From Gordius albopunctatus (lineage: Eukaryota), in contig OZ193909.1 of NCBI GenBank assembly GCA_964276515.1, forward strand, positions 14,074,001-14,138,000: a DNA stretch of 64,000 bases, read 5' to 3'. The notes beneath the pieces are model-generated. The model was not told where the DNA came from. It was given only the letters and a program-made list of their open reading frames with translations, and ran no database searches. The translations under genes were made by a program, and so were the position numbers. Positions 4,001 through 40,650 of this stretch are shown here, in pieces (within the stretch, counting starts at the first letter, position 1; every line of letters starts with the position of its first letter).

Positions 4001-7000
4001 ACTATATCTTGATTGACCACAATATCTCGGTCGATCCACAATAATGTGCCCCATTCATTCAAACTCCTTTCTATGTGCAAATCTAAACAAAACGATTTAA
4101 ATTTTTGTTGATAATTTTAAAAAATGGGAAATATATTGTGAAATTATAATAAAATAATAACTAAACTCAAAGGTGATTTGAAAGAATAGTCAGCGATGTC
4201 TGTAGCTTTTTGAGCATATTGCTTTCGTGCTTGGATATCTGAATGGGAATTTGTTGCCAACGTCATGTACAAAGGAAAGATTTTTGTTAACTGATAATGG
4301 ACACGACCTTGGTAAAAATCAACATAAAAAAATATTTTTTGTAAATTTATAAAGTATAAGTTAAATTTACTTTGTTACTAATATTTTGTGACTTTCAGCC
4401 TCATTCGAAACAAAAACCTTTAATTAATTATAAACCAATATACAAACTTTTTTAAACCCATAAATTGCCTTTTGATAAGAATGAGGCTTGAAAACGTCAA
4501 TAAAATACTTTTTAAGTTTATAAATCAGCCAAATTATTGTGGAATTACATCATATAAAAATTATAAATTATTCCATTACCCAGGGCAAAACATTCTAGAT
4601 TTATGAAATCCAAGTACTCTTGCCATTCATTGTCTTCGTTGGCGAGAGTAATTATTAAGAGTACAGTTTAAGGCAGCAGATTAATAAAGGTTAAGCAAAG
4701 TAAATAGCCCATACCCAAACCTGTTTTAAATTTAAAACTTTAACTTAGACCCAACTAGAAGGTATTGTTATAACTCATAGTGCCCTCCCCCTACTTATAT
4801 CTAAAAATTAACCACCGTTTAAAAATAATTTCTAATTAAAAATCTGCGTGTAAAATATTTTTTGATCTAACATTATCTTTTTATCAAGTATGTCTTGAAC
4901 TATTGTGTATTAAATGCAATGTCTTTCATAATTTGTTCTTATCAGACAAGCTACGCCTGTGGGAAATATTCGAGATTCGAATCGAATGTTTAAAAAAAGA
5001 TTCGAAAATTCATTTAACCTTCAATTTATTTTAAATAGACTAGTAGCATAAAATACAGCTGTCTTTATCTTATCGCAATTTAGTTATATTTCCCGCCATC
5101 ATTTTTTTAAACCTCTTAATTACAAACACGCTTAATTAAACTTCATTTTGGCACATAATAATAAATGTCCATGTCCAATGCTATTGGTAAGTGGTAACAT
5201 AATCCATTATATTTATCTATATATATATAATATCTATTTAAATTGACTTTAATATGATTGAATCTTATATCTTACATTCTTATATACACAACATAATTTT
5301 TTAATTGCTATGCAATTTATGGGCTCGTTTTTGGTTGTCCGTCCGTCCGTCCGTCTACCAAGTTATTTACACCAGCTTCCCGACCTGGAGGTTGCGGGTT
5401 CGAGACCCGGAGAGGACAAATTTTTTTTTTTTTTTTAAATTAAATTAATATTTTTTTCTTGTTAATACCATTGATAATATGACTTTTTGACCGTCCGCAG
5501 GGTACTGACCAATGAAAAAATGACCACTGGCCAGATAAATCGAAATTTTTAATTTTTCGTTTTTGAATAGTTTAACATTGATAATTACCCTATGCCGTCC
5601 CCTACAAGGGCCTATGGCTCTATTTATATGGTTCCCTGTTCCCCTCCAAAGGCTTATGCCTCTATTTAATGTGGGTTTGAATCCCGGCGAACGTTCTAAA
5701 TTGATGGTTCGAGACCCGGAGAGGACAAAAATTTTTATTTTTTTTTAAATTAAATTAATATATTGTTCTTGTTAATACCATTGATAATATGAATTTTTGA
5801 CCGTCCGCAGGCTACTGACCAATGAAAAAATGACCACTTGCCAGATAAATCGAAATTTTTAATTTTTCGTTTTTGAATAGTTTAACATTGATAATTACCC
5901 TATGCCCTCCCCTACAAGGGCCTATGGCTCTATTTATATGGTTCCCTGTTCCCCTCCAAAGGCTTATGCCTCTATTTAATGTGGGTTCGAATCCCGGAGA
6001 GGGCAAAATTTTTTTTTTTTAATTAATTTAATATTTTGTTCTTGTTAATACCATTGATAATATGACTTTTTGACCGTCCGCTGGCTACTGACCAATGAAA
6101 AAATGAACATTGGCCAAATAAATCCTAATTTTTCGTTTTTCCTTTTTGAATAAGTTAACATTGATAATTGAAAAAAATTACCATTGGCCAAATAAATCAA
6201 AATTTTTTGTTCGTTTTTGAATAGGTTAACATTGATAATTACCCTATACTTTTTAATAATTGCTATGCAATTTATCTAGTTTTTGGGTTAGAATCCCGGA
6301 GTTTTTTTTGACTCTTATGATTGTTCTTGTTACTATCAATGATAATAAGACTTTTTGGCCGTCCGCTGGCTGCTGACCAATGAAAAAAATGACCATTGGC
6401 CAAAATGTGTATCCGAGTTTATTTTTTCGTTTTTTTTTGAATATTATGATTGTTCCTGTTCCTACCATTGCTATTATGACTTTTTGGCCGTCCGCTGGCT
6501 GCTGACCAATGGAATAAAATGACCATTGGCCAAAATGTGATTCGAAAATTTTTTTTTCGTTTTTTTTGACTGTTATGAATTTATATCCACTTTTACCGTG
6601 TCCTGGCTGCTGACCAATGGAAAAAAATGACCATTGGCCAAAATGTGAATCGAAATTATTTTTTCCGTTTTTTTTGACTATTATGATTGTTCCTGTTCCT
6701 ACCATTGCTATTATGACTTTTTGGCCGTCCGCTGGCTGCTGACCAATGGAATAAAATGACCATTGGCCAAAATGTGATTCGAAAACTTTTTTTTCGTTTT
6801 TTTTTACTGTTATGAATTTATATCCACTTTTACCGTGTCCTGGCTGCTGACCTATGGAAAAAAATGACCATTGGCCAAAATGTGTATCCGAGTTTATTTT
6901 TTCGTTTTTTTTTGAATATTATGATTGTTCCTGTTCCTACCATTGCTATTATGACTTTTTGGCCGTCCGCTGGCTGCTGACCAATGGAATAAAATGACCA

Positions 7001-10000
7001 TTGGCCAAAATGTGATTCGAAAATTTTTTTTTCGTTTTTTTTGACTGTTATGAATTTATATCCACTTTTACCGTGTCCTGGCTGCTGACCAATGGAAAAA
7101 AAATGACCATTGGCCAAAATGTGAATCGAAATTATTTTTTCCGTTTTTTTTGACTATTATGATTGTTCCTGTTCCTACCATTGCTATTATGACTTTTTGG
7201 CCGTCCGCTGGCTGCTGATCAATGGAATAAAATAACCATTGGCCAAAATGTGATTCGAAAACTTTTTTTTCGTTTTTTTTTGACTATTATGAATTTATAT
7301 CCACTTTTACCGTGTCCTGGCTGCTGACCAATGGAAAAAATGACCTTTGGCCAAAATGTGATTCGAAAATTTTTTTTTCGTTTTTTTTGACTATTATGAT
7401 TGTTCCTGTTCCTACCATTGCTATTATGACTTTTTGGTAATACAACTCCCGTAGAATTTAACTAACCATAAAGCTTCCCCTTCGCTCCCTCTCTCCCCCT
7501 TTATGATATTTGGCATATACACTTATTTAGTGCTTCCAACCTTCGTTTTGCAATATTCACGTAAGTATTTCCATAAATTGCATAGCAAATATGATACATT
7601 TATACGGAGTGTAGATGAGTTCCCCCTTCCCTCCCCTCCTCCCCTTCCCCCTTCCCACGAGGGCCGAAGGCCCGAATTTTATTAACTAAACCATAAACAA
7701 TCCTTCAAGGAAGAAAATATTAGAAAAATAATTTGCCTCAAAAATTGGCTGAAAAACACTGCTTAATCATTTTACAAATATATTTCTGTTCGCCTATTAT
7801 AGTTCCATATTCAATTTGTGTTTAATATATTTTTAAATAAATTTTTGAAATGTATTTATAGTGTTTTATAAAAAACTTAAAACATGTTCGAATCGAATTG
7901 GAATCTTAAAATTTCTTTCGAATCGAATCCGAATCTTTAATTTGTTATTCGACGAATATCGAATCGAATATTTTTCCAAAAAAATTTGGCGTAAAACAAA
8001 CGTTTAGCTAAGATTTAAGTAATTATTTAGTAAAGTTTAGTATTTTCTACCACCCTTTGGCTGAACGATTTTTTTTTAAAAGTTAAAAATTCTTGTAAAT
8101 TATGAGGAATTCTAAAATTATTGATAATTGCTTATAATTTTTTACGAGCCTTTGATAAATTTCGCTAACATTTGACATAAAACACGGCTGAAATAGGACA
8201 CCTCTCAACAATGCTGAAGAGTGAAATAGTTTAATTGACGATTAAACTTTCCGACAAAATATCTGCTCAAAAAATAACTATGAATTGAAAATAACACTGG
8301 TCAACAAATAATGGACTTGTGAAATTAACCTGCGAACTATTTGCAGATTCTGGTAGAGTTTTTCACGGTGAACACAAATATCTTTTTAGTTTTTTCCCTA
8401 TACCTCAAGTTTTTTAAATATTCGCTGTCAAAGTTGCCAAAAACGCGATTTTAGCGTTTTTCAAACGTCAATAACTTGCAAATTGGTGGGTAAAAATTTT
8501 ATTTATTAGATTTAATACGTAGAGATAGGGGAGAGGAATGTATTTACAATTTTTTTTTTATCCTAGCACTTTTAATTTTTAAATTATATACAAAATTAAT
8601 TATCCCTATTTTTTGCATTGACAAATTACACCAGACTTCTCTTCAACACTAGGAATTAAGTGTGTGTTGTTGTTTGTGTTGTTGTTTATCCACTCTACTA
8701 CTACTATTACCAAAACAACAACACCCACTTAATTCCTAGTGTTGAAGAGAAGTCTGGTGTAATTTGTCAATGCAAAAAATAGGGATAATTAATTTTGTAT
8801 ATAATTTAAAAAATAAAAGTGCTAGGATAAAAAAAATTGTGAATACATTCCTCTCCCCTATCCCTACGTATTATATCTATTAAATAAAATTTTTACCGAC
8901 TAATTTGCAAGTTATTGACGTTTGGAAAACGCTAAAATCATCGCGTTTTTGGCAACTTTGACAGCGAATATTTAAAAAAATTGACGTATAGGTAAAAAAC
9001 TAAAAACATATTTGTGTTCATCGTGAAAAACTCTACCAGAATCTGCAAACAGTTTGCCGGTTAATTTTTCTTGTTGAACCGTGTAATCAACCAACAAATT
9101 TATGATAAATATTTAAAAGCAATTCAAAAGACTTTACAGAATATAAGGACTTGCAAAAAATGTAAGGCGTTATAATTATAGCAGCGGGCACAGCGAAGTA
9201 CTACTTAAAAACGTAAATTAAACAATCATTCTAGACAGTATTACCTTCTTCGTTGGGCATTTGACTTAGGCCATATAATCTGCACTGCAGCAGCTCTTCT
9301 GTAAGATTTAGGGCTATGAGCGACCAGCCCTCTGCTTGAGTCGTCTTTAAAAAATCCTGGTAAAATGTTTCAGCCTTTTCATAGTCGCCCATTCGCCTAT
9401 TTATAAATTTAATTAAAACACATGTCTACACCAAGTTCCATATCAATTAGTTTTCCACGGGCTTTAAAGTTTGACAAAACTAATTCAACAGTAGAAATTG
9501 CTTCTATTATAATTCAAATAATTAAAAAATTTTTTCATTTTATTAAAAATAATCAAAGAAATAGTGTTGGTCTTTTAGAAAAATGCCAAGAGACACGACT
9601 TACGTCGGGCTTGAATAAAAAGGGTGGGTAAAGAGTGCCCTTTATTAAAGTTACTATAAAACTAAACACATCTAAACATCCAATTATTTACAAATTCAAT
9701 TTTATCCATTTTAATTTCTATAAAAAAGCAAACAAATCTTTGATAAGAAATATAGGCAAATTTTGTAAAAACAAATTATACACTTCAACAAAGCCTAACT
9801 ATTGAATAATGTTTAGAATCCTAAAAATGCTCAAAGACAAATTGACGAGAAGCTTTAAACAGGGCAAAACATTACAGGTAAAACTTGGCGATATCTTGTC
9901 CAACTAGCTTAGCGCTCCGCACCCTTCCTACGTGCTTTAGGCTGATTAGTGAAAGTTCTGCAATTTCCTAAACATAATCCTTTCATCAAAAACTATATAT

Positions 10001-16530: not shown

Positions 16531-17486
16531 TCTAATATATAAAAAGGTTGAAGTATTACTTATAAAAAAACCATATAGCATGGGCGTAGTCTGCATGAGA
16601 ATTCGATAGTTTAATGTTTTTCACCTTTAAGTAATTCAATTTGATATATTAAATATGTTATATTTATAGATAACACTGCCAGCTAAAGGCAAAAGGAATA
16701 ATTTTGGTCGTCATACGAAACAAAATGCAGTCACGATAAATATAAGAGCACAAAGAACAGACGAACAAATCCTAAAAACAATGCACATATGCGTGTGAAC
16801 ATGGCCCAAATACGTTAATCACAATTTTAGAGGCACGAGATGAACGAAATAAACAAAGACGATCAAAAAAACAAGCCCGCCGATTTGTAATCAACACACG
16901 TAGAGCAAATGACCAACAACGCCAAAAAGTACATCGAGCATTTAAGTCCTTATGATTTCCACATATGTGCCGATTGAATTCAAACGCATTAAATTTGCAA
17001 TTAGATTGGCATTCGCAATAACAATCAATAAGGCGCAAGGTCAAACGATGTCTATTTGTAGCTTAGATTTTGCCACACCATGCTTTTCTCACGAACTGCT
17101 ATATGTGACATGTTTTCGCGTAGGTAAACCATCCAGTTTGTTTGTGTTGATAGACGGACTACTCAAAAAAATAATATATACTTTATCGAACTTAGAGATT
17201 GGTGATGAATTATTTTTAATCGTCATATTTTGATGTATATATATCAAAAATTATTTAATAAAGTATAAAGGATGAAATTAATAAATGATAAGTGTATTGT
17301 CATTTTATAAGCCAACATTGTCACGACGCTCCGTTCTTATTTCAAACATAACCACATACCCATACACTTATAGTATTTTTTAGAAATAATCTCACCCAAA
17401 TTCTTTCATATATTTCCTATTGATAGGTACCAATTATTTAGCCAAATAAGAACTAAGCCTAAGCAACGCTTGGCAGGGCACAGCTA
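16531..17486 (+). mobile_element. Internally deleted Helitron: Rep-Hel N-terminal remnant joined to the PIF1 helicase C-terminus
   Basis: ORF 16952-17233 (FKRIKFAIRLAFAITINKAQGQT...CFSHELLYVTCFRV) matches Helitron helicase motifs V-VI. The upstream remnant reads ARRFVINTRRANDQQRQKVHRAF. 5' end TCtaatatataaaa; 3' end aagcaacgcttggcagggcacagcta (degenerate hairpin plus CTAG). Confidence 0.85.
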
Positions 17487-18293: not shown

Positions 18294-18836
18294 AACTCGG
18301 GCCTTCGGCCCTCGTTGGAAGGGGGAGGGGGAAAGGGAAGGGGGAAGGGAAGGGGGGAAGGGAAGCGGGAACGAAACTCATCTATACTCCGTATAAACGC
18401 AGCATATTTGTTATGCAATTTATGGGCCAGAAAGGGGGGAAGGGGCGAGAATGTCTATAGGGGGGGTATTAAATGAAAAATAATTGGACTGACGAGCATA
18501 GGGTAAATATCAATGGTAACCATTTAAAAACGAAAATAAAATTAAAATTTCGAATCACATTTTGGCCAATGGTTATTTTCTCCATTGGTCAGTAGCCAGG
18601 GCCCGGGCAAAAAGTCATATTATCGATGGTATTAACAAAAACAATATATTAATTTAATTAAAAAAATTGTTTGCTCTCTCCGGGATTCGAATTCGAACCC
18701 ACATTAATAGAGGCATAGGCTTTTGTAATGGCATGTTAACCTAATATACCAATTCAAAAACCAGCAAGTCAGAACGTTGGAGGACGGACGGACAACGGAC
18801 AACAAAAAGCGAGCCCATAAATTGCATACCAATTAA
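18294..18836 (-). mobile_element. DINE-1/HINE-like element, short diverged copy
   Basis: Reverse complement of the family: hairpin at ~18299-18311, subTIR at ~18407-18426, GGAC repeats, and the 5' subTIR cccataaattgcatacca at ~18814-18831. Confidence 0.75.
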
Positions 18837-19463
18837 AAGAGACGATTTTTGCATCACTATCTTAGATCAGGATAATTTTTGGCGAGGGTGTAGGTCTCAT
18901 TTATTAGATCTATTTTGGGCCAATACTCTTTAAATTATGGAGGTTTTAAGGGAAGAAATCACGTTCGCAAGCGTTTTATGGATTTAACTATTATTGATAA
19001 TAAAATCGTTATTCACTCAAATTTGGTGAATTTTGTTCCTAAAAAATTCTCTATCGAAATAATTGAATTAAAAACCTCAAACATTTGCGGTCATTTTTAC
19101 CCTTTTAATGAATGAAAAATTTTATTTCCCCTAAAAATATTTATAGTTGGTGGTATAAACAAAATTAATTATCACTAGAACATATTATTATGTTTGTTTA
19201 TTATCAAATTGCAAATTTCTAATAAAGAATATATGGTAAATATATAATATTGGATTAAAAATAAACCTAAATTTTCAACTTTTTTTCTGCGCAATGGGCA
19301 ATTATCAGAATTTATTAGCATATAGAAGAATAGATAAGTAAATAAAGGATTCATATAATAAGGCTCAGCTATTTATTTGCCTTAACATAAAGATTAAACA
19401 TAAATTTGTAATTTACATATGAATATCATAGATATTGGTATTAAGATAATTATATAAAATAAC

Positions 19464-19605
19464 CTCCTCCATTGGTGTAACAAATGTATGGAAATCTCCA
19501 AATATTTCCTAACCCAATGGCAAATCCTATGCAAGAAATGATAAAATCTAATTTTCCAATCCAATTTCCTCTTTCAGAAACTTTATCCAAGCTGATTTTA
19601 GACAT
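19464..19605 (-). pseudogene. First coding exon of an SLC6 (sodium:neurotransmitter symporter) gene; no further exons recognised
   Basis: Translates [47 protein letters not shown](G), the SLC6 TM1 signature, and ends at a GT donor. It is below the ORF-track length cutoff. Pseudogene status is inferred. Confidence 0.75.
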
Positions 19606-19755
19606 TTTATATAAATTATTTTGGCCTAGTTTGTAAAGAACTTATGTGGAATGTTGAATAATTCTGAATAGCAATTATACTCTTCTATTCCCCCTCACTT
19701 CAGGCAAATACACTTAGAGCGACAAGTCAGCGGTGGATCACTCCCCAGCGATTCG

Positions 19756-20391
19756 ATGACGTCCCCTGACAAATCCTCAACTGGCGCTACTGTTAGCAGC
19801 GATGCACTAGGATCAGAATCTATGGTTAAATTAATTCTGGATCGGCTAGCTGCAATGGACGCCAAAATTGAACGGAATTTGCTCGGACATAGCGAGGAAA
19901 CAATCGCGGTCAACGAAAATCCGCCACATTGGGCACCCACGACGGTCCCGGAAACAGTCACACTGACTAGGACCGAGTTAGATGCGCTCTTAGCAAGGGA
20001 GAGAGCGCGGGCTTCCCCAAACCTACCAAGTTCCAACGCAGAAATCCTAAAATTACGATTGAAGGGCCTTCGCGAAGCAATCGAAACTAACTATTCCATG
20101 CCGGCCTATCAAAAACACGAGGCTGATTTTCTTCTTAGCCTCGGAGAAACGATCGATGATTACAATAAAACCATCGACAAATTTTCCGATAAAGTCAGGA
20201 GATTGGCTATGGCTCCGTACTATGGCTGGCAAGCCGTAACAGGAAAATCTAAGGATTGGGCGGAGAAAATGGGAATGGGCCAATACACTGAACCGGTCCA
20301 GCTTTTTCGTCCGCCTGATTCGCGACATGCTTCACGGAAGAAAGGCTCTCAGTCGAAAGGGCCGCCTCCGCCCAGGGCGGAGAGAACGTAA
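19756..20391 (+). CDS. ORF1, gag/capsid-like (211 aa; probably missing its N-terminal extension)
   Basis: Lies upstream of pol and overlaps it by 65 nt. Helical core with a basic, Pro-rich C-terminus (RHASRKKGSQSKGPPPPRAERT). Conserved in unit 2. The gag role is inferred from position only. Confidence 0.65.
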   Translation: MTSPDKSSTGATVSSDALGSESMVKLILDRLAAMDAKIERNLLGHSEETIAVNENPPHWAPTTVPETVTLTRTELDALLARERARASPNLPSSNAEILKLRLKGLREAIETNYSMPAYQKHEADFLLSLGETIDDYNKTIDKFSDKVRRLAMAPYYGWQAVTGKSKDWAEKMGMGQYTEPVQLFRPPDSRHASRKKGSQSKGPPPPRAERT

Positions 20392-22237
20392 ATATGTAAG
20401 GACGGTAGCAGCGACCCTCGGCAGTGGTGATAACCCGCCGAGATCGGTTAGGAATGGAAATGCTCCAACATGGCTCGTTAATTATTCTGACATTGCCAGG
20501 AGCATCGCTATCAACTCCATTTCTCCCGATGATGCCCCGGAGTTGGAGGAGTTGCCACACCCCTTCAACGCACTGCTACCTGAGCATACAAATGTGCCGG
20601 GGCACCTCAACGCACAATGGACGGAGGTGGGTCTGGATAGCGAAGGCCCACCTATCATAAGCGAACCGTCCAACATCCCCTCATTCCCCTCCCATCCATT
20701 ATCCTCATTCACACGGTTCGAACATCCATTATCCATCAGAACCACCATTCTTAAGCCACATCATCTCCAGAGCGACTTTACGAAAAGAATCGCCAGGTTT
20801 GGATTCAAGCCTAGACTGTCTCGTAAGGCTATCGTCGAAAATCAAGGGAGATATCACGTGCCCAGATATGTCAAAGCCATCCCGAAAATCCATAAACCTC
20901 TGGTTGATGAAATTATTCTCTCAAATATCGTTCGGGAAAACCCAGGTACTATACCTTCCCCTATGTACTTTATTCCGAAAAGTGACGGATCCCCACGACT
21001 TATAGCGGATTTATGTCAAATCTCAAAAAACTTCGTGAAATACCCCTTTTCTCTTAAATCAATTCCGTTGATTGCCTCCTCATTATCGGATGCAAAGTAC
21101 ATGACTAAAATAGACATGAAAGCCGCATTTTTCTCAATCCCACTTTCTCCGGAATCATCCAAATTCTTTGGATTCCGATATAGACGGCGAAAGTATGCAT
21201 ACAAGGTACTGCCCATGGGGGCTAGTTTTTCACCATATGTTTTACAGCAAGTAATGCTAGACTTGTGTAGCAAGGCCATCACGAAATCCAAATACAAAGT
21301 ATATCTAGATGATATCCTAATATACGGCGCATCCGCAACGATGGTTCTGGCCGATATAAGGAGATTCCTTTATTTAGCCAAATGCTGGAACCTCACAATA
21401 AACCGAAACAAATCATCACTTATTCCCAGAACTATTTTGGATTACTTGGGTATCAATGTTAACCTGGAGCAGAAGACTCTCAAAGTGAATAACAAGTTTA
21501 TCAATAAAATTGACGCGGCAACTCAAATCCTGAACCATTTTCTTACTAAGAAGAAAATCCCTCACCCATTGGTCACACAAACCTGCCTGGGAATCTTGAC
21601 ACATTATGTGTACATGCTCATAGGTTGGACTAAGTTCATATCGCCTGCTTACAATCTGCTCCTGTCCGCCAATCCCATAGAATTCAGGACGGACTGGTTG
21701 GTTCGCAAACTACTTCTTTTGCAAAAACATCTATCCATTCCCTTCCACATGAGGCATGAGACCAATGGTTTTACCGCAGGAGACGCGTCGCTTTCACACA
21801 TTGGCATATTTTTTAGAGGCTCCGTCCTATCAATTGCCAAGAGTGATGCACTAGCTATCTTCGGTGTCCATGATCTCATACCCACGATCAACCTCCTGGA
21901 GCTAGTTGCCATCCCGCTAGCCTTCATCAAAGCGGCCGTTGACTCCCCGCATAGCTGTCCCAAGATCCTTACCGACTCACGAACAGCCTTTTACATTGTC
22001 AAGAAGGGTAGTGCCCATGCTCCGCATATAGAATACGCATTCACCAAGATCTGTGACGTCATGGGTCTGGATAACATGATAAAAATCAAACAAAATCTGG
22101 AATGGGTACCCACCGACAAAAATACTGCCGATGGTCCGTCTCGAGAGCCGTATTTCGATGACTTCCAACTGGGACAAATTGTTAGATGGACCCGCTCGAA
22201 CTGTACCACACACGTAGAACAACACACAGTTTGCTAA
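20327..22237 (+). CDS. ORF2, reverse transcriptase + RNase H (636 aa), DIRS/hepadnavirus-like
   Basis: RT motifs RLIADLCQIS, IDMKAAFFSIPL, KVLPMGASFSP, YLDD and DYLG. RNase H motifs GDASLSHIG, INLLELVAI, LTDS and WVPTDKNTADGPSR. Confidence 0.92.
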   Translation: MLHGRKALSRKGRLRPGRRERKYVRTVAATLGSGDNPPRSVRNGNAPTWLVNYSDIARSIAINSISPDDAPELEELPHPFNALLPEHTNVPGHLNAQWTEVGLDSEGPPIISEPSNIPSFPSHPLSSFTRFEHPLSIRTTILKPHHLQSDFTKRIARFGFKPRLSRKAIVENQGRYHVPRYVKAIPKIHKPLVDEIILSNIVRENPGTIPSPMYFIPKSDGSPRLIADLCQISKNFVKYPFSLKSIPLIASSLSDAKYMTKIDMKAAFFSIPLSPESSKFFGFRYRRRKYAYKVLPMGASFSPYVLQQVMLDLCSKAITKSKYKVYLDDILIYGASATMVLADIRRFLYLAKCWNLTINRNKSSLIPRTILDYLGINVNLEQKTLKVNNKFINKIDAATQILNHFLTKKKIPHPLVTQTCLGILTHYVYMLIGWTKFISPAYNLLLSANPIEFRTDWLVRKLLLLQKHLSIPFHMRHETNGFTAGDASLSHIGIFFRGSVLSIAKSDALAIFGVHDLIPTINLLELVAIPLAFIKAAVDSPHSCPKILTDSRTAFYIVKKGSAHAPHIEYAFTKICDVMGLDNMIKIKQNLEWVPTDKNTADGPSREPYFDDFQLGQIVRWTRSNCTTHVEQHTVC

Positions 22238-22387
22238 ACGCTAAAACCGTAAAAGAGTTTAAGAATTACACTACAATTCATGACCCACTTTTTACTCTTC
22301 ATCGTTTCCCTCCTCGTGTCTTACTTAACCCTTGACCCTCGTTGGTTTGGTAAATTTTTTGTGTTTTATCCCTGGTCTTCTTGCTTT

Positions 22388-24991
22388 ATGCCAAGGAGAA
22401 CGTCGTCAAGAAAGAATATTTCGGACACGACCCCCCTTAACAAATATTTTTCCAAATCAACCTCGCTTAGTAAGATTAACTCATCCCTCCCTAACGAGTC
22501 GATGACATCCCCAGACAAATCGTCAACTGGAGCAACAATTAGCAGTGACGCATTAGGATCGGAACCCATGATCAAATTAATTCTGGATCGGCTAACTGCT
22601 ATGGATGCAAAAATTGAGCGAAATTTTCTCGGGCACAGTGAGGAAACGATCGCGGGCAACGAAACCCCAACACTGTGGGCCCCCGCAACGGTCCCGGAGA
22701 CCTTTACGATGACTAGAACCGAATTAAATGCACTCTTAGCAAGGGAAAGAGTGCGGGGTTCTCCAAACTTACCAAGTTCCAATGTTGAGACACTCAAGCT
22801 ATGTCTCAAAGGACTACGCGAAGCTATCGAAACCAATTATACTATGCCGGCCTATCAAAAGCACGAGGCTGAGTTCCTCCTTTCCCTTGGGGAATCTATA
22901 AATGATTACAACAGAACCATCGACAAATTCTCTGATAGGGTCAGAACACTGGCCATGGCCTCTTATTACGGCTGGCAAGCAGTAACGGGCAAGTCAAAAG
23001 ACTGGGCGGAGAAAATGGGTATGGGCCCATACACATACCGGTCCAGCTTTTTCGTCCGCCTGATAGACGACATGGTCCACGGAAGAGAGGCTCTCAGTCA
23101 AAAGGGCCGCCTCCGCCTCGGGCCGAGAGAACGTAAATATGTAAGGACGGTAGCGGCGACCCTCGGCAGCGGTGATAACCCGCCGAGATCGGTGAGGAAT
23201 GAAAATGCACCAACATGGCTTATTAATTATTCTGCCATCGCCAGGAGCATCGCTATCAATTCCATTTCTCCCGATGATGGCCCGGAGCTGGAAGAGTTGC
23301 CACACCCTTTCAGCGCGTCGCTACCTGAACATACAAATGTGCCGGGGCACCTAGATTCATTATGGACGGAGGTGGGTCTGGATAGCGAAGGCCCACCTAT
23401 CATTAGCGAACCGTCCAACATTCCCTCATTCCCCTCCCACCCCCTATCCTCATTCACTCATTTCGATCGCCCCTTATCGATCAGGACGACCATTCTCAAA
23501 CCTCATCGTCTTCAAAGCAACTTCACCCGGAGGATTGCTAGAAATGGTTTCAAGCCTAAGATCTCACGTAGAGCTATCATCGATAACCAAGGGAAGTATC
23601 ATGTGCCGAGATATGTCAAGGCTATTCCTAGAGACCATAAACCACTCGTCGATGAAATCATATTGTCCAACGTGGTACGGGAAAACTCGGAAACCATACC
23701 ATCCCCAATGTATTTTATTCCGAAAAGTGATGGTTCTCCCCGGTTTATTGCTGATTTATCCCAAATTTCAAAGAACTTCATCAAATACCCTTTTTCTCTC
23801 AAGTCGATCCCCCTTATTGCCTCTTCATTATCCGATGCCAGGTATATGACGAAAATAGATATGAAAGCAGCATTCTTTTCAATTCCGTTGGCCCCCGAGT
23901 CCTCGAAATTCTTTGGCTTTCGCTACAGACGGCGCAAGTATTCTTACAAGGTATTGCCCATGGGGGCTAGTTTCTCACCCTACGTATTACAGCAAGTTAT
24001 GTTAGACTTGTGCAGCAAGGCGGTTACAAAATCCAAATACAACGTATATTTGGATGACATCCTAATCTATGGCCCCTCAGCAACAATGGTTCTAGCGGAC
24101 ACAAGAAGGTTCCTTTACCTGGCTAAGTGTTGGAACTTAACGATAAACCGAAACAAATCCTCACTCATCCCTCGGACCATTCTAGATTACCTCGGTATTA
24201 ATGTCAACCTGGAGCAGCAGTCACTAATGGTTAATCAAAAATTCGTCAGAAAAATCGACGCAGCCACCCAAATTCTGAATCATTTCCTGACGGAGAAAAA
24301 GACTCCCCATCCTCTGGTCACGCAGAAATGCCTGGGTATCTTAACACACTATGTGTACATGCTAACCAGTTGGTCCAAATTTGTCTCCCCAGCCTACAAC
24401 ATCCTACTATCCGCCAACCCGATAGAGTTTCGAACCGACTGGCTAGTCCGTAAGCTCCTACTCATCCAGAAACACTTATCCTCCCCCTTCCGTATGAAGC
24501 ATGAGACCAATGGATTCACCGCGGGAGACGCGTCGCTGTCACACATTGGGCTATTCTATAGGGGCTCCGTCCTATCAATATCCAAAGGTGATACGCTAGC
24601 TATCTTCGGTGTCCATGATCTCATACCCACTATCAACCTCCTGGAACTAGTAGCCATCCCACTAGCTTTCATCAAGGCGGCCGTCAACACACCACACACC
24701 TGTTTCAAGATTTTGACTGACTCCCGCACAGCCTTTTACATAGTTAAGAAAGGGAGCGCCCACGCTCCGCATCTGGAATAGGCGTTCACCAAGATATGCC
24801 ATATCATGGGCCTCGACAACATCATCAAGATAAAGCAGAACCTGGAATGGGTACCGACCGACAGGAACCCCGCGGATGGTCGGGAACTTTTCTACGACGA
24901 CTTCCAACTGGGACGAATAATCCATTGGACCCGCTCGAACTCTACCACACGCGCAGAACAACACACGCTTTGCCAAACTCAAAGACCGTAA
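22388..24991 (+). pseudogene. Disabled ORF1/pol of unit 2
   Basis: Relative to unit 1: a 1-bp deletion near 23035 fuses ORF1 to the pol frame (the 833-aa ORF), a TAC>TAG stop at 24779-24781 interrupts RNase H, and 6 bp are lost in the ADGPSR motif. Confidence 0.8.
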
Positions 24992-25049
24992 AAGAGTCTA
25001 AGAATTACACTATAATTCATGACCCCCTTTTCCACTCTTCATCGTTTCC

Positions 25050-25263
25050 CCCCTCGCGTCTTATTGAACCTTTGACCCTCGTTGGTGTGGTAAATTTCTC
25101 GCGGATACGTACTTTACTTTTATATACGCGATCGCCATTTATAATTTTTACATGAGGATAAAATAATAAATAAAACAAGAGTTAGGGGGATATCCCGTTA
25201 GGGACTCTCCCTTCTCCCCTCGCGTCTTATTGAACCTTTGACTCTCGTTGGTGTGGTAAATTT
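25050..25263 (+). repeat. 48-bp direct repeat pair (25050-25097, 25216-25263) with a third diverged copy at 22312-22357
   Basis: cccctcgcgtcttattgaacctttgac[c/t]ctcgttggtgtggtaaattt; 47/48 identical between the two copies. Confidence 0.95.
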
Positions 25264-25869
25264 TTATAACAGTAATAATGATAAATATGTAGTAAATTTT
25301 ATCAATATTTGTTAAACAAACTACATCTCCACCCCTCAATCGAATACATCACATGGGTAAGGAAAACGAATACCCCCACGAAGTACATAACTTATATTAT
25401 TGATTTTATTTGATAGAGTGGGGAGGGAAACAAAATTACTGTGCTAGGGAAAAGCGAACTTTACAGAATTGGAGCTAGAAGGGGGCAATTATGATTTAGG
25501 GAGGGGTGATTTGATGTTTTTTTTAAATATTAATGTTTTTTAAATTTAGGGGGGGGGGGTAGTCGCCACTTTCTGCCTCCCCCTACAATAGTAACTATCA
25601 TTCTTTACTAAATCTTATACATCTACTACAAGCACGGCAATCAATTGTTATTACTCTTGCACTAATACATATTTCTACTTATATTCTAACTTTCTTAAGC
25701 CCACTTCTTAAGTTGTAACAGACGATCTAAATTACAATGTTATACAAATTTGAAAAATTCAAATAAAATTAATGTTCTTTTTGCTTAATTCCAATCATAT
25801 ATTTTTAAACCAAGCAAATACAAAACGACGGAATATTTGTATGCATTTAGTTAGTAACACATCAAAAAA

Positions 25870-26578
25870 TATGATTTGCCTTCGCCGGGATTCGAACCCA
25901 TATTAATAGAGGCATAGGTTTTTGTAGGGGGGGGGGGCACAGGGACCCCTATCAGTAGAGGCAAGGGCTCTTCTAGGGGAGGACATAAGGTAATTATCAA
26001 TGTCTACCTAATATACCAATTCAAAAACTAAAAAAAAAATTTCGAATCACATTTTGGCCAATGGTCATTTTTTTCATTGGTCAGTAGCCAGAACACGGTC
26101 AAAAAGTCATATTATCAATGGTATTAACAAGAACAATATATTAATTTAATTCAAAAAAATAAAAACTCCGGGATTCGAACCAGCAATTCAGAACGTTCGC
26201 CGGGATTCGAACCCACATTAATAGAGGCATAGGCTTTTGTAGGGGCACAGAGACCCATATCAGTAGAGGCATAGGCACTTGTAGTGGAGGGCATAGGGTA
26301 ATTATCAATGTTATTACCCAATTCAAAAACGAAAAAAAATTTCGATTTATTTGGCGAATGGTCATTTTTTTCATTGGTCAACAGCCAGCGGACGGTCAAA
26401 AAGTCATATTATCAATGGTATTAACAAGAAAAAAATATTAATTTAATTAAAAAAATTTTTTTTTGTCCTCTCCGGGGATTGAACACGAACCTCCGGGTCA
26501 GGAAGCCGTTGTAAATAACTTGGTGGACGACGGACGACGGACTTCAAAAAACGAGCCAATAAATTGCATAGCAATTAA
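25870..26578 (-). mobile_element. DINE-1/HINE-like element, 3'-truncated copy
   Basis: 5' subTIR (aaattgcatagcaattaa, 26561-26578), GGAC repeats and central units are present. The 3' hairpin is not seen. Confidence 0.75.
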
Positions 26579-26780: not shown

Positions 26781-27185
26781 GACACAACTATAAATTAATA
26801 AACAAATTTAATCTATTACCAAATAACATTTTTATTAATATTTTGGAGTTTAACATTGTAGGAGTTCAATTTCGAACGTGCACAAACATTAGTTTTTGCA
26901 GTGTGCGGTAGGTGTAGTTTGTCCTACTTTAGTATGGCCGACTGCATAGGCTTGTTTCATATACGCTTCGAATTTTTTAATTACATATTCCACTTATTTA
27001 AACACCCTCAAGGTATTTTAAGCTTTTTAGGAGTTGGTGTCATTGATATTGCGCGTTGTGAACATATAAGTGAAAATTCCATTTAGAATATACATTATGA
27101 AACATTCAAATATCTTTCCAAATTTGCTCTATATTATACCAATAAATTTAAAATTTCCTTGAAATACTTATGATACTTGTTTACA

Positions 27186-28929
27186 ATGAAATTGAAATCT
27201 CCTCCGCTTAGGACAGCATATCATGATTTTGGGCTCACTAGAGAGCATTCCAGATTGAAAGACAATTATAAAAGAGACAATTCTGAATTTACAAAGATTG
27301 GCGCTAAAACTAATTTCACACCAGAAAATATGTATAATATAAATGAAAATAATATATATGGGCAATTATATGTTGATTCAACTTTGCCCGCAAGGCCTGT
27401 TAATCAAAATCCTCTTTACAAACCACACGATATGACTGGTACTTTAATGCGATTCAATCATGGAGGCAGTTTAGCTAAAGTTGAAGATAGTCATTATGCT
27501 ATGACGACCGACTTAGATGATATAAACGATTACGGAAATAACCGAAGCAGTTCTGAATTATTACCTTGGTGGTCAGATCATGGGGGAACTTTGCCTTCTT
27601 TGACTCTAAACCAACAGCAAATTATATCGGAACCGTTTGGTGACGACATTAATCCTATAGTTAATTCAGCTAGAAGCGCCCTTGGGGATAGTCAGGATAT
27701 CAAACATCCTACAAAAGTACATAGGGAAGCTTCCATTTTTATTTGGCTCGTTAGTTGGTTAGCACAATGCATGCTACTGTTCACGGTTTTAGTGACGAGC
27801 ATTACTCCGATGCCTTGGTTAGTGGGTGATAATATCTTAAGTCCGGGATCTGTAATAGGTGGCTTATGGGGATTTTGCACATCTGGATTTAGAATAAATG
27901 ACATCGGAGCCAATCAGGCATTGTCTAAACCCCACTGCTTTGTATTCAATCGCGAGAATGAGGCTAACTCCCTATCGACCCCTTCATTTTGGACTTGGGT
28001 TATAACAATATTTAACTTCCCTTCCTTAGTAGTCTCCCATTACCACATGCTCGGAGCTTGGTTGTGGTGCATAGCATTAACATTAAATGCTTGTGGATTT
28101 ATAATCTTTGTGCTCGTGTACTTAGGCGCACTGTGGTCACTACCTAAACTTATGCAAAATTACATAAATTTTAAGGCACGATCCAATCAACCGGTACAAA
28201 ATAATAACACAAAAAATCCTAATCAATGGCACTTAGAGCAAAAGATCGGGATAAACCTTAAAATTTCAATGCAAAGTATTCCATTTCGCGTCAATAAATA
28301 TCTTGTTATTTTTGCTGGATATTTCAACTTAGTAACAGGTAAAGTTTTACTATGAAGTTTAAAAATGTCAATCCCCAATTTAAAGACCATTTATATGGCT
28401 ATTATTAACTTTTACATTAATGAAAGTTTAAACATAAATAAATTCTAGCAATTCCTATGACCTTCTCGTGTTTACTCTATCCATTGAGTTGGAACAACGC
28501 TGCTTTGAAGATAGTTTGTGGGAAGAGGATGAAAGCTTATAGTTTAGGAGATTGCTCAATGGGGCTTGGATTTTACCTAGCTCTTTTGTGTATTCTAAAT
28601 GCTATTGCTCTCGGATCGCTAGGGATATGTCTAGCAAACAAGATTCCTCAATATCAAAGTGCTACTAAATTTAGGCTGTCCAAAAAATATACAAGTAATT
28701 TTATTCGTTATTTAATATTTAAGGTTTTAAAATGTTTGTTACAGACAGCAAGAAATACTGGAAAACTGAAAACGAAATTTTGTCATACAATTTTAGTGAT
28801 GAAGTCGTTTACCGGAAACCTCATATAAATGGATCTAAATCGATATTTGACAATGATAAATCCATCTATTCATATCTTCCTTCTAGTTTTAAAAACGACA
28901 AAAATGGCTACAGTTTAAAAACTTCCTAA
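27186..28929 (+). CDS. LHFPL/TMHS-family tetraspan membrane protein (3 exons: 27186-28338, 28449-28694, 28745-28929)
   Basis: PWLVGD...GLWGFC and CLLYPLSWNNAALKIVCG...YSLGDCSMGLGFYLALLCILNAI match LHFPL3/4/5 motifs. The GT/AG junctions preserve the frame. Confidence 0.85.
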
Positions 28930-31236: not shown

Positions 31237-31738
31237 CGTTATAAATCAATTGAGGATAACGGACATTATTTTCACTTCCCACAAGTTTCACATTTTAATT
31301 TTACTTTAATATTATTTTCACCTCTTATTTTGTTAGCAATGGCGAGTTAGGTCTTCAGTCCAGTGTTTTTCTGAGTTATTGCTTCTTACTTTCCCCTAAG
31401 ATTTTCTACCACACTTTCAGATGCTTTCTCCATAATTTTAAGTAAATGATCTCTTTTTTTGTTACGAGTTCCCTACGAAAATGGTAATGACGTTTAAATC
31501 TAAAATGAGAACTGATGTAAGCTAGGTTCATGGTGTCTACCTCTACATATACTAAATCACACTCTAATAAGGGTGCAATAAACTTTTTGACTTCTACAAA
31601 ATATTATTTTTGGTAATCTACGGGTGCCACTTATGTCCATGTTCTTGGGAAGATAAATATCTGAAAATGGCTGTCGAAATTCGAACTCTTAAGGAAGGTT
31701 TACAAAACATTCTTAAAACATGATATAATTTTTTTATA

Positions 31739-34700
31739 TTCTTCTTCTTCTTTATCAGTTATTTGGTCCCATATTGGTGGGGTTTGTTTTGATGAGTCTC
31801 TTCCATCTTGACCGGGTTAGTGCCATGTCTTGACGAATATCTTTAGTTTCCATAACTTTATCGACTTGCCTTTTCCACGTGACACGGGGTCGTCCTCTTC
31901 CTCTCTTCCCCGGTATTTTCATGTCTAGCACTTTTCGATTTACGTCATCCGGGTCCCTTCTTAGTATATGCCCATACCACCTTAGCCGATTTTCGTTAAT
32001 CATGTCCGCCATAGGTTGAATACCCATTTTTGTCATGAGAAAGTCATTCGTCATATGGTCGAGCTTAGTATACCCCAAGCTCCACCGTATCATTCTCATC
32101 TCCGTGGCTTGTAATAACTTTCCTTCAGTGGTGTTTAATGCCCATGTTTCACTTCCATAGAGTAACACCGGTCTTACGATGGATTTGTAAGCTTTGCTCT
32201 TCAACCATATTGGCATTTTCTTGTCGCACATTACACCGGATATACTTCGCCATTTAAGCCATCCTTTTTGAATCCGGGCATTGATTTCAGTTGCGCAACC
32301 TCCCTCTTGATGTAGCATAGAGCCGAGGTAATTAAACCTGTCTACTTTTGGGTATTTTAGGTGGTCATCCAGCGATGGGGTGCTTGTACCGTTCATTTCC
32401 ATGTATACCGTTTTTCGATCGTTGACCTTTAAACCATATCCAGCTAAGCACTTTGACCACTTTTCTGCTTCTTCGAATACCTTCTACCTTGTTTCCTCGC
32501 ATAGTACTATATCATCGGCATATAGCATACACCATGGCGATGGCTTTTGAAAGTCCCTCGTTATCGTGTCTATAATTATATTAAATAAAAAGGGACTTAA
32601 AGCAGAGCCTTGATGTAATCCAATATTAACCCGAAAAGGTTTAGAGTCTCCAACTGTCGTCCTAACGCAAGAGTTTGAGGCTTCATAGATATTTTTCATA
32701 AGCCGTATATATGCGTCAGGGATATTTTGTTTCCTCAGGCACCACCATATTAAATCGCGGGGGACCGTGTCATAAGCTTTCTCCAAGTCGATAAAAACCA
32801 TATGTAGATCTTTCCTCTTTTCACCATACTTATCCATCATTTGTCTTAGGGCGAAGATTGGGTCGATTGTGGATTTGCCGGCCACGAATCCGAATTGATT
32901 AGCCGATATTTCCACCTCGTTTTTCAGCCTTGTTACTAAGATCCTTTCCAAAAGCTTCAAGGAGTGGCAAGTTAGCTTGATACCTCTGTAATTGCCGCAG
33001 TCCTGAGGGTCTCCTTTCCCTTTGAATAAGGGTATAATCGTGCTTGCTCTCCATTGATTAGGGATTCGCTCTTCTACCAATATCTTGTTAAGGAGGTTCG
33101 TCATGGTGGTGACTCCTTCTTCACGACATCCGAGCAATGCTTCCATAGGTATTCCATCTGGGCCATTTGCTTTTCCTTTTTGCATCTTGTTCATTTGTGT
33201 CCTAACTTCATCCTTCTGAAAGAGTTCGACCATACTTATATTTGGCTCAATTTCGGGAAGAGAATCCTTGTCATTTGCAATATTCATAAGTTTCTTAAAA
33301 TATCCTTTCCACCTTTCCATCACTTCCTTCGGCTTGAATAAAGTTTGACCCTTCTCGCTTTTGACTATTTTAAGAACTCCGACATCTCGACTTTTCTTCT
33401 CCCTTATCTTGGCCAATTTGTACATAAGCCTATCGCCCCCTTTATGATCCAGTTTGTTTGCCATCTCGGTGTACGCAGCATTCTTCGCTTTTGTAACGGC
33501 CTTTTTTGCGGCCCTCTTTGCGTCCCTGTACTCTTGATAATCCTCCGACTTTTTTGATTTATGCCACCGTCTATATAGATTTTTCTTTATTTCGATGGAA
33601 TCTTTAACCGATTGATCCCACCACCATAGTTCCCTATTCATAGCTTTGCCTCCTTTGGTCTGTCCTAGAACACGAATCGCTGTTTCCTTAATGTCCTTAG
33701 ATAGCGTTTCCCAATCTTCGTCTACGTCCCTTTGCAACTTCCTTGCACCCAAGAGTGAGGAGGCTTTTTGATGGTATTCTTCGTTCGTCGACGTATTCTT
33801 TAGCCTTTCGTATCGAATTCGAGGTTCATATACCTTTCTTCTTTCGGGAAATACTCTTCTGTCAAGATCCATAACAAGGGGACGATGTTGCCTGGCGATT
33901 TCTTCTCCCGGTATTACTTTGCAATCTTTGATACTCCATAAGTCCTTTCGCCGTATAAGCAAATAGTCGATTTGACTAAAATGCTTCCCACTTCTATAGG
34001 TCACAATATGATCTTCGCGCTTTTGAAAATAGGTGTTAACGATCGCCATGTCATATGCTTGGGATGCTTGTAGAAGTTTTTCCCCTTCTTTGTTCTTCAG
34101 ACCATGCCCATAGCCTCCATGATTGCGTTCATACCCGAGGCGATCTTTCCCTACGTGAGCGTTGAAATCGGCCCCAATAATTAGCCTTTCTTCCTGTCGG
34201 ATTCCTTGTATTTCCTTTTCCAATGATTCGAAGAATATGTCTTTCTCTGATTCCGAACACCCAATTAGGGGAGCATACGCGCACATAACGGTTAGGAGGC
34301 CCCCTTGATCCGCAATCTTTACCCACATTAGCCTGTCGGAACAACGTTTGACTTCCACCACCTTGTCCTTGAACGATTCGCTTAGAACGATACCGACCCC
34401 GTTTCTACGATTTGGTGACCCACTGTAGAAAAGCTTGTATCCTTCTCCTAATTCCCGAGCTTTCGTTCCGTTCCACCTCGTCTCTTGTAGGCAGGCGATG
34501 TGTACCTTTCTTCTTTTTAACATCTGTGCGACCTCGATGCTCTTCCCCGTCAACGTTCCCACATTCCAGCACGTAATTCGCATTCTTTCCACAACTAGTT
34601 TCCTTAACCGCCTTCGTTGTGAGTTGGGCAGTAACCCTAGTGTATTTTTCACATTGCACGGGCGGGGTATGCAGTGCGCGTCGTTTGTGGAGGACGCCCT

Positions 34701-35866: not shown

Positions 35867-36997
35867 TTGCTGAATTCTGCGTCGAATGCTTTTGATTGAT
35901 TTAAGACCTAGTTTAACGTTTGCTGTGCAATGCACCTTGGTTGTATAGGATTGTGCTTTTTCACTTAAAACCTAAAAAACTAATTTTTCTAATATAAATT
36001 AATAATATGGTAACTTCCTCAATAAAATCTTGGCATAAATTGTGAATTCACCATTTTATCGCAAAATTTGCATCAAATAATCTTGCCATCCGTCAATAAA
36101 CGCCACTGATAAATTAATAACGATTGAGATCATTTGAATTTTAGCCTAATTAAAATACCAAACTCAAATGAAAAATATTTGAAACTGAAGAATAAGCTAG
36201 GAACACCATTAATTTTAAGTATTTTAGCACTATAAAAACAGCTCATATATAACTTATATCTTTAAACGTCTAGGCACAAAATATAAAGCCATTATGTTTG
36301 AAGGAAATATGTTTCTTCCAAAAACGCTGTCTACTTATTAGCTGTATTATAAAAGCTTTTATCAAGCAGATACTTAGTTTTGTAAATACTAAAAGAGAAA
36401 AGACCGTTTATTAGTGATGATCAAAACCTAGGTTTACTTTTTACAACCCAAACCTGGGGTGGAACCTCAAAAAAGACCTTAAAACCCTTAAGGCCTTTTA
36501 TACACCCAAATCTTAACCCGGGGTTGGGGCTAGGTTGAGCTAGGTATAATGTTTTGTAGTATAGGGGTGAAATAAGAATATATTATTTTTTAAATATGAA
36601 TATATTTGTTTTTTGAGGAAGAAATTAATTTTTTTTTTGAATATTTTAATTTAAAATGAAGAGAAAATGTTTTCTTATCATTATAGATTTAATTTTATAA
36701 TATAATCTTTGGGTAGATTAATTAAAAAAATTATTGGGATTATTGTTTTAGCCCCATCTAGGTTGTAATTAAATTATATTAATGCATGTATTGCATTGTT
36801 TATGATTAAATTAGTTTTTCACAAGTTATAAATCATTAAGCATTTACAAGCGCGTAGGGAAGGGGGGGGGGGGTTTTCGGGTTTGAACCCCCCCCCCCTC
36901 CTCCTGGATATTATTTTTTTTCAAAAAACAACACAAAATTATTGATAATCATGATTATAATTAATTTAGCTAGTGTCAAGTGCTGCGTTTATATTTA

Positions 36998-38670
36998 TTA
37001 ATTGCTATGCAATTTATGGGCTCGTTTTTGGTTGTCCGTCCGTCCGTCCGTCCACCAAGTTATTTACACCAGCTTCCCGACCTGGAGGTTGCGGGTTCGA
37101 GACCCGGAGAGGACAAAATTTTTTTTTTTTAATTAAATTAATATTTTTTTCTTGTTAATACCATTGATAATATGACTTTTTGACCGTCCGCAGGCTACTG
37201 ACCAATGAAAAAATGACCACTGGCCAGATAAATCGAAATTTTTAATTTTTCGTTTTTGAATAGTTTAACATTGATAATTACCCTATGCCCTCCCCTACAA
37301 GGGCCTATGGCTCTATTTATATGGTTCCCTGTTCCCCTCCAAAGGCTTATGCCTCTATTTAATGTGGGTTTGAATCCCGGCGAACGTTCTAAATTGATGG
37401 TTCGAGACCCGGAGAGGACAAAAATTTTTATTTTTTTTTAAATTAAATTAATATATTGTTCTTGTTAATACCATTGATAATATGAATTTTTGACCGTCCG
37501 CAGGCTACTGACCAATGAAAAAATGACCACTGGCCAGATAAATCGAAATTTTTAATTTTTCGTTTTTGAATAGTTTAACATTGATAATTACCCTATGCCC
37601 TCCCCTACAAGGGCCTATGGCTCTATTTATATGGTTCCCTGTTCCCCTCCAAAGGCTTATGCCTCTATTTAATGTGGGTTCGAATCCCGGAGAGGGCAAA
37701 ATTTTTATTTTTTTAATTAATTTAATATTTTGTTCTTGTTAATACCTTTGATAATATGACTTTTTGACCGTCCGCTGGCTACTGACCAATGAAAAAATGA
37801 ACATTGGCCAAATAAATCCTAATTTTTCGTTTTTCCTTTTTGAATAAGTTAACATTGATAATTGAAAAAAATTACCATTGGACAAATAAATCAAAATTTT
37901 TTGTTCGTTTTTGAATAGGTTAACATTGATAATTACCCTATACTTTTTAATAATTGCTATGCAATTTATCTAGTTTTTGGGTTAGAATCCCGGAGTTTTT
38001 TTTGACTCTTATGATTGTTCTTGTTACTATCAATGATAATAAGACTTTTTGGCCGTCCGCTGGCTGCTGACCAATGAAAAAAATGACCATTGGCCAAAAT
38101 GTGTATCCGAGTTTATTTTTTCGTTTTTTTTGAATATTATGATTGTTCCTGTTCCTACCATTGCTATTATGACGTTTTGGCCGTCCGCTGGCTGCTGACC
38201 AATGGAATAAAATGACCATTGGCCAAAATGTGATTCGAAAATTTTTTTTTCGTTTTTTTTGATTGTTATGAATTTATATCCACTTTTACCGTGTCCTGGC
38301 TGCTGACCAATGGAAAAAAATGACCATTGGCCAAAATGTGAATCGAAATTATTTTTCCGTTTTTTTTGACTATTATGATTGTTCCTGTTCCTACCATTGC
38401 TATTATGACTTTTTGGTAATACAACTGTTTCCCGTAGAATTTAACTAACCATAAAGCTTCCCCTTCGCTCCCTCTCTCCCCCTTTATGATATTTGGCATA
38501 TACACTTATTTAGTGCTTCCAACCTTCGTTTTGCAATATTCACGTAAGTATTTCCATAAATTGCATAGCAAATATGATACATTTATACGGAGTGTAGATG
38601 AGTTCCCCCTTCCTTCCCCTTCCCCCTTCCCTCCCCTTCCCCCTTCCCACGAGGGCCGAAGGCCCGAGTT
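36998..38670 (+). mobile_element. DINE-1/HINE-like element
   Basis: Nearly identical to 5301-7677 but with fewer internal tandem units. Both subTIRs and the 3' hairpin are present. Confidence 0.8.
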
Positions 38671-40564: not shown

Positions 40565-40650
40565 TATTAAATTAATCCTATAAATAAATAATACATATTT
40601 CTACTTATATTCTAACTTTCCTGACGTCATTATTGTATATGATGCTATAA

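Follow-up and report, generated by a model that had tools for sequence, protein, structure and literature searches.

Nackednavirus genomes measure 2.7 to 3.1 kb (PMC11551314), and the proto-nackednavirus rows in the supplement to PMC12691608 carry YMDD and LPMGLGLSP-type motifs. HEART elements (Gong and Han 2018), known here through PMC12440569 and PMC12691608, are endogenous invertebrate reverse transcriptase (RT) elements placed next to the Blubervirales; hepatitis B-like viruses have been modeled as arising from retrotransposons by the escape of a HEART element (PMC12691608), and the mobilization of elements of this grade is stated to be unknown (PMC12440569). Ngaro, PAT, and VIPER retrotransposons have a 3' end of the form B1-A2-B2 (PMC6681497; PMC8547959), and the RNase H of VIPER shares the end motif of recombinase retrotransposons (PMC6681497). 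Here we describe a compact retroelement from Gordius albopunctatus, located in a 64-kb window of contig OZ193909.1 (the whole stretch of DNA analyzed, to which all coordinates refer; every part of the element lies on the plus strand). We are inclined, by a modest measure, to read it as a diverged head-to-tail pair of copies of an element built from open reading frame 1 (ORF1) and an RT-RNase H frame (pol), which forms a lineage of its own shared with Gordionus, lies between DIRS-type elements and hepatitis B-like viruses, branches close to the root of the hepadnavirus-related (HEART-grade) radiation, and returns its cDNA to the chromosome by host recombination.

The two units repeat with a period of 2,745 to 2,746 bp and are 80.3% identical over 2,622 nucleotides (nt) (Table 1). 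The GC content of the element is 46%, against 25 to 33% in the surround; at the left edge of unit 1 it rises from 25% (19300-19680) to 53% (19680-19755), and homology to unit 2 begins at 19737. An initial annotation, made from the sequence alone, had assigned to each unit only ORF1 and an overlapping RT-RNase H frame, with the next unit starting within about 120 bp of the pol stop and no other long frame present. This layout holds: both frames could be read in unit 1 and aligned to unit 2, unit 2 starts 120 nt past the unit 1 pol stop, and the longest minus-strand frames reach 131 amino acids (aa) in unit 1 and 156 aa in unit 2. Both frames are open in unit 1, but unit 2 is not intact and is broken at three places: near 23035 a frameshift fuses ORF1 with pol, at 24779 there is an in-frame stop, and near 24878 a short deletion strikes the last RNase H motif. 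The ORF1 of unit 2 carries a 38-codon basic N-terminal extension, which unit 1 lacks. The reported absence of a tyrosine recombinase, integrase, and protease was confirmed, as a recombinase profile run against the six frames of the window gave no match (best E value 0.4), and the open reading frame list and Pfam revealed no integrase, protease, or methylase in either unit, RVT_1 being the only Pfam family. Membership of the DIRS order therefore fails on the recombinase, at this locus. No further copy was found in the window by tblastn with both proteins.

Table 1. Parts of the retroelement in the window.
Feature	Position	Strand	Description
Unit 1	~19680-22357	+	both frames open; left edge approximate
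ORF1, unit 1	19756-20391 (open from 19672)	+	211 aa; helical middle predicted; basic C-terminal tail
pol, unit 1	20240-22237	+	665 aa stop to stop; first ATG 20327, present in unit 2 too
Segment of suppressed synonymous change	20292-20720	+	43 mismatches in 429 nt
3' untranslated region (UTR), unit 1	22238-22357	+	ends in repeat B; compared with 24977-25097
Unit 2	22358-25097	+	decayed; 30-nt leader, ORF1 from ATG 22388, pol
Spacer X	25098-25211	+	114 nt between two B copies; TATA-like and AATAAA words
Repeat B, second copy	25212-25263	+	52 nt, 96% identical to 25046-25097

An assembly artefact, or contaminant DNA joined to the host contig, is a highly improbable source of the tandem. Over 296 to 658 nt, contigs from two public runs, both belonging to one study, show 0 to 2 differences from parts of unit 1 and of unit 2; given these near-identical contigs, the element sequence is not an assembly invention. 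The unit contigs lie near single-copy depth (126-151 versus 164 in one comparison, 527-713 versus 413 in the other), and close relatives sit on Gordionus chromosomes of 64 to 94 Mb. Nor is the tandem a duplicated haplotype, since its units differ by 20%. In favor of an artefact, no contig among those listed for the two runs bridges the junction between element and host, and the flanks are repetitive. The flanks at ~19300-19680 and 25264-25400 show run depth like that of the conserved parts of the element, so that its true ends may lie further out.

Copies beyond the locus were assessed through the contigs of these two runs, under an 85% match filter. Further contigs match the element at 86 to 90%. 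A variant contig differs from unit 2 at 54 positions over 24622-25057, where 83 would be expected if it were unit 1; the corresponding counts are 66 and 125 over 24032-24538, and 40 and 104 in another comparison. Because these differences fall well below expectation, the contigs do not derive from unit 1 sequence aligned to unit 2. One variant contig continues from RNase H directly into the 3' UTR of the same family. A recombinase is absent at this place in at least three diverged lineages, and the recombinase-less layout is therefore old and family-wide, not the outcome of one recent deletion; recombinase-bearing copies elsewhere in the genome are possible. Relative to the single-copy flank, summed contig depth is 3 to 8x over the RT and 18 to 107x over the conserved segments and spacer X (~48x and 63x for X, depth not being equal to copy number), a pattern that reflects either tens of diverged copies, only the conserved parts of which pass the filter, or short derivatives. 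A joint from 24939 back to 22228 was considered as a trace of a circle and rejected, as it is colinear with a further variant.

Comparison of the two units reveals strong constraint. Over pol positions 20720-22132 the proportion of synonymous differences (pS) is 0.73 and the ratio of nonsynonymous to synonymous divergence (dN/dS) is 0.026; for ORF1, dN/dS is 0.056. Synonymous sites between the units are saturated, and both proteins have been under long purifying selection. It follows that the units replicated separately for a long time, that both proteins were needed, and that the damage to unit 2 came later. Within the segment of suppressed synonymous change, pS falls to 0.28 at 20393-20719, versus 0.73 elsewhere in pol (Fisher p 7e-14), and the folding z score is -2.8 at 20400-20520 and -2.1 at the unit 2 counterpart. 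An overprinted gene was ruled out here: only the pol frame combines a synonymous excess with freedom from stops, and because it alone is conserved, the segment is likely a cis-acting signal or a gene-conversion tract. Synonymous divergence is also low within RNase H at 21795-21916 (pS 0.33), a stretch that includes a 35-nt identical run at 21851-21885.

The 3' UTR is conserved between units at 107 of 121 columns (13 mismatches and one gap), and in unit 1 its terminal repeat B directly abuts the leader of unit 2. Spacer X is likely part of the 3' end of the family. Neither B nor X folds better than its shuffles, an Rfam scan returned a single match at chance level, and no terminal inverted repeat was found in the element. 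From an ATG in the unit 1 3' UTR, a hydrophobic stretch of 36 codons (22280-22387) runs in frame with the ORF1 of unit 2; the stretch resembles a precore-type leader, is off register in the UTR copy of unit 2, and could simply reflect the T-richness of the sequence.

ORF1 is likely a Gag- or capsid-like protein, judging from its position and its basic tail. Its structure model is of low confidence (mean predicted local distance difference test score (pLDDT) of 48), sequence searches returned no homolog, no Pfam family matched, and the Atlas gave no usable match for the whole protein; the helical part alone led to unnamed, mostly basidiomycete Atlas clusters at 0.91 to 0.92, which we treat as a lead only. 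Fold searches with this low-confidence model found nothing (best E value 0.73; best Z score 5.5 with 3.8 Å root mean square deviation over 109 aligned residues). The word A..YGW..V in ORF1 presumably resembles the Gag of recombinase elements. ORF1 overlaps pol by ~150 nt. The first 158 residues of pol are predicted to be disordered (pLDDT below 50, with a shallow alignment there); the RT (Pfam, residues 245-407, with YLDD) and the RNase H (DAS, E, D, and NTADGPSR) are modeled confidently, and only 30 residues follow the RNase H motif. Fold searches with pol retrieved generic RTs, the best TM-score of 0.48 belonging to an unnamed viral entry of 634 aa. Most DIRS-like matches, in contrast, extend ~140 to 240 aa past RNase H. 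DIRS1-type elements have a methylase-like domain there, which the element lacks, and long terminal repeat retrotransposons, including Troyka and the Kuafuorterviruses, encode a protease and a DDE integrase, neither of which is present in the element.

The closest proteins are all labeled Gordionus sp. (XP_065317776.1, XP_065315139.1, LOC135924076, and CAK9296137.1/138.1, annotated as uncharacterized), with 34 to 46% identity over RT-RNase H and E values of 1e-86 to 1e-56, while the best matches outside Gordionus begin at 4e-32. They form one clade with the element, and neither has a methylase tail. The motifs quoted in the initial annotation are all present in unit 1, but its view that they lean toward hepadnaviruses did not hold, as LPMG and WxPxxxNxADxPSR also occur in recombinase-bearing elements and are not diagnostic. 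A motif scan retrieved 19 hepadnavirus genomes and 120 of ~710 metagenomic loci, 80 of them with flanks. The motif argument is weak because the same RNase H motif stands beside a recombinase (profile, E value below 1e-5) in 29 of these 80 loci, of which six had built the profile and were confirmed by Pfam; several of the recombinase-bearing loci also contain LPMG. One metagenomic contig of 3,007 bp (L091) shares the layout of the window element, with a 205-codon ORF1 overlapping a 790-codon RT-RNase H frame with an acidic N-terminus, and no frame of recombinase length after pol. Its ORF1 has the word A..YGW in common with that of the window (hhalign E value 0.02, BLASTP E value 7.5), a likeness at the sequence level that is suggestive only.

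Trees were computed from an alignment spanning RT through RNase H with 78 rows: unit 1, three Gordionus, 16 short-tail, 29 DIRS-like, nine Gypsy-like, 11 hepadnavirus, and nine motif-locus sequences. Ten rows with an RT too divergent to crop had been dropped beforehand, and the group labels, which come from Pfam and tree position, are not curated. The short-tail proteins were chosen by eye from the 150 best matches because they stop soon past the RNase H motif and lack a methylase. The clade of element and Gordionus received support of 99 to 100 in all five maximum likelihood trees. Together with 14 short-tail proteins and the 11 hepadnaviruses it formed a group with a Shimodaira-Hasegawa-like approximate likelihood ratio (SH-aLRT) support of 97 under both LG+G and LG+C20 (78 rows), the DIRS-like clade being separate at 96 (LG+G) and 93 (LG+C20) and Gypsy at 99 to 100. 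With connection and RNase H alone, the element is the first branch (93) of the hepadnavirus-like group; the RT-only tree, from which, as from the preceding one, five more rows were omitted, supports the element-hepadnavirus group at 92 but includes in it the recombinase-bearing Ngaro-like set. An approximately unbiased (AU) test with the element as sister to the hepadnaviruses gave p 0.405. The intermediate character ascribed at the outset to the RT-RNase H was thus recovered: the DIRS-like clade does not include the element, which most trees place with hepadnaviruses and unnamed short polymerases. Placement with the hepadnavirus-related group is favored, not proven, by these comparisons.

The fourteen unnamed metagenomic RT-RNase H proteins that group with hepadnaviruses (P0047, P0048, P0049, P0052, P0060, P0074, P0081, P0083, P0084, P0088, P0096, P0106, P0162, and P0168) are possibly an undescribed radiation. 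Most have DATP, several have acidic or proline-rich N-termini, and P0081 resembles the tick HEART rows by eye. The hepadnaviral RNase H family PF00336 was matched by five of 84 proteins scanned, all five among these fourteen. No relative was found in viral_contigs for pol, P0048, three small alignments, or the tryptophan form of the motif, and none was found in genome_contigs.

The structure of the 3' end brings in the main alternative explanation, in which the element is an old, partly autonomous offshoot of the split-direct-repeat tyrosine-recombinase elements (Ngaro/PAT/VIPER type). It would have kept Gag and RT-RNase H but lost its own recombinase, and would be inserted by the enzyme of a related element located elsewhere in the genome, acting in trans. 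The B-X-B arrangement resembles the 3' half of a split direct repeat and matches the B1-A2-B2 end of Ngaro, PAT, and VIPER (PMC6681497; PMC8547959). With these elements it also shares a Gag-like frame overlapping RT-RNase H, the lack of a protease, and the NxADxPSR end of RNase H, which is common in recombinase elements; the overlapping frames, YLDD, DAS, and INLLEL are DIRS-like. On the other hand, the element has no recombinase frame and no matching 5' repeat, is half as long, and has an RT outside their sampled clades. No good copy of X was found before either unit, the best being a weak similarity between 19280-19346 and 25117-25174 (shuffle p 0.003, one of nine tests). Moreover, the RT never falls inside the DIRS-like clade (support of 93 to 99 where resolved), the gene is missing from the corresponding position in three or more strongly diverged variants, and ORF1 did not match three Ngaro-like Gag segments (E value 0.36). 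We regard a recombinase acting in trans as unlikely.

Several results nevertheless weigh against the hepadnavirus-related placement and the host-recombination route, the B-X-B end among them. AU tests did not reject the element with the DIRS-like clade (p 0.126), with the Ngaro-like set (p 0.082), or with all recombinase elements (p 0.154), and of the initial proposal of a recombinase-less lineage related to HEART, the loss common to at least three variants stands, whereas these tests leave a DIRS/Ngaro placement possible. Profile scores for pol, which depend on profile depth, were 438 for the short-tail set, 393 for DIRS-like, 208 for Gypsy, 164 for Ngaro-like, and 138 for hepadnavirus sequences, the DIRS-like score being far above the hepadnaviral one. 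In a bootstrapped 42-row subset the DIRS-like clade kept 99/98 but the element-hepadnavirus group fell to 83/77, with the bootstrap not settled. None of the tree rows is a curated sequence from HEART, a nackednavirus, PAT, Ngaro, or VIPER, and the pol of the window did not match PF00336. L091 is unstable in position, joining the recombinase-bearing sequences when the tree is built from the combined regions or from RT, and it is the one exception among the Gordionus and metagenomic relatives, which are otherwise known from proteins alone. Finally, the data, which are the assembled contigs of two public runs, showed neither a circle nor a transcript nor an empty site.

A viral origin had also been proposed. 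In this explanation the locus is an endogenized small, non-enveloped reverse-transcribing DNA virus basal to the proto-nackednaviruses, with ORF1 as capsid and a 2,745-bp circular genome, one strain having integrated into another. The unit length lies within the nackednavirus range (PMC11551314), and proto-nackednaviruses and nackednaviruses resemble the element in being ~3 kb long, with a small frame overlapping an RT-RNase H frame and with neither integrase nor envelope. A pol with its own conserved ATG overlapping ORF1, saturated synonymous divergence under strong protein constraint, and a GC content unlike that of the flanks fit a virus as well. Of the fourteen short-polymerase relatives, 13 are on contigs of at most 3.8 kb, a weak point given that metagenomic contigs are short anyway. 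However, as described in PMC12691608 and PMC11551314, proto-nackednaviruses and nackednaviruses have a terminal protein, YMDD, the direct repeats DR1/DR2, and mostly a recognizable core, none of which was found in the element, which sits in host DNA. The terminal protein family PF00242 was absent from pol at an E value of 1, while three hepadnavirus controls scored 1e-40 to 1e-143; hhalign gave 0.89, at which a very divergent domain is conceivable, and the suggestion that the pol N-terminus is terminal-protein-like thus found no support. No repeat of at least 10 nt within the unit is conserved in both units, as DR1/DR2 would be. ORF1 had been suggested as a hepadnaviral core; profile comparison with 10 hepadnavirus cores gave an E value of 0.16, and the fold searches were uninformative, so that the core lends the viral reading no support. 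Hepadnaviruses have YMDD and DATP where the element has YLDD and DAS, and the near-single-copy depth of the unit contigs also speaks against a virus. Membership of the Blubervirales fails on the terminal protein and the direct repeats, and, judged on its sequence, the element is not a member of the nackednaviruses or proto-nackednaviruses because it shows no terminal protein, core match, or DR1/DR2. We consider a viral origin quite unlikely.

Among the described systems, the element works most like a HEART-grade retroelement, being endogenous, invertebrate, and probably next to the Blubervirales, as HEART elements are described to be (PMC12440569, PMC12691608). It is a candidate member of HEART itself; by eye, all seven tick HEART RT rows in the supplement to PMC12691608 have LPFG with YIDN or HLDN, against LPMG and YLDD in the element. 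In the route that we favor, ORF1 would package unit-length RNA and pol would copy it into DNA of ~2,745 bp, probably circular; instead of being primed by a protein, synthesis would use strand transfer at the conserved 3' repeat. Host recombination or repair would then return the DNA to the chromosome, most readily into a resident copy; such an insertion would yield a dimer of two lineages in which repeat B abuts the next leader, as seen, and unit 2 would have decayed in place afterward.

The neighborhood contains several further features. A host exon of the LHFPL family (PF10242) lies at 28442-28828, 3 kb downstream of the element, and points to a probable animal host; upstream of this exon the region 27174-28828 holds a 393-codon frame with no Pfam match. 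A high-copy dispersed repeat family with internal periods of 240 to 310 nt occurs in both orientations on both sides of the element (5296-7694, 18322-18730, 25881-26487, 36993-38686, and 48693-49878). An inverted repeat pair of ~1.28 kb (31724-33002 and 39307-40582) is 97 to 98% identical with its arms 6.3 kb apart, and a 0.75-kb palindrome spans 8322-9067. Short frames at 16772-17233 look, by eye, like what we take to be the decayed C-terminus of a Helitron/Pif1 helicase.

The literature searches brought up no account of an element of this kind from nematomorphs and no recombinase-less lineage with this layout, although the original HEART description may contain a similar one, in which case the element would be a new member only. 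If a recombinase does act in trans, the element would still be an unusual, long-lived recombinase-less branch, mainly of interest to transposon specialists. A bolder interpretation, which we hold to be doubtful but worth stating, is that the element represents a living intermediate on the way from tyrosine-recombinase retrotransposons to hepatitis B-like viruses, with the recombinase lost and the terminal protein not gained. It would persist in horsehair-worm-type hosts as a circular replicon of 2.75 kb, and would be the first member with a chromosomal anchor in a widespread, unnamed class of ~3-kb two-frame RT elements seen in metagenomes. The locus supplies a unit with open frames, a head-to-tail junction, conserved noncoding signals, and relatives in a chromosome-level Gordionus assembly. 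With it, three questions become directly testable: the existence of a circle, the priming of reverse transcription when no terminal protein is present, and the means by which the DNA is inserted. The element would offer a way to test how such elements spread.

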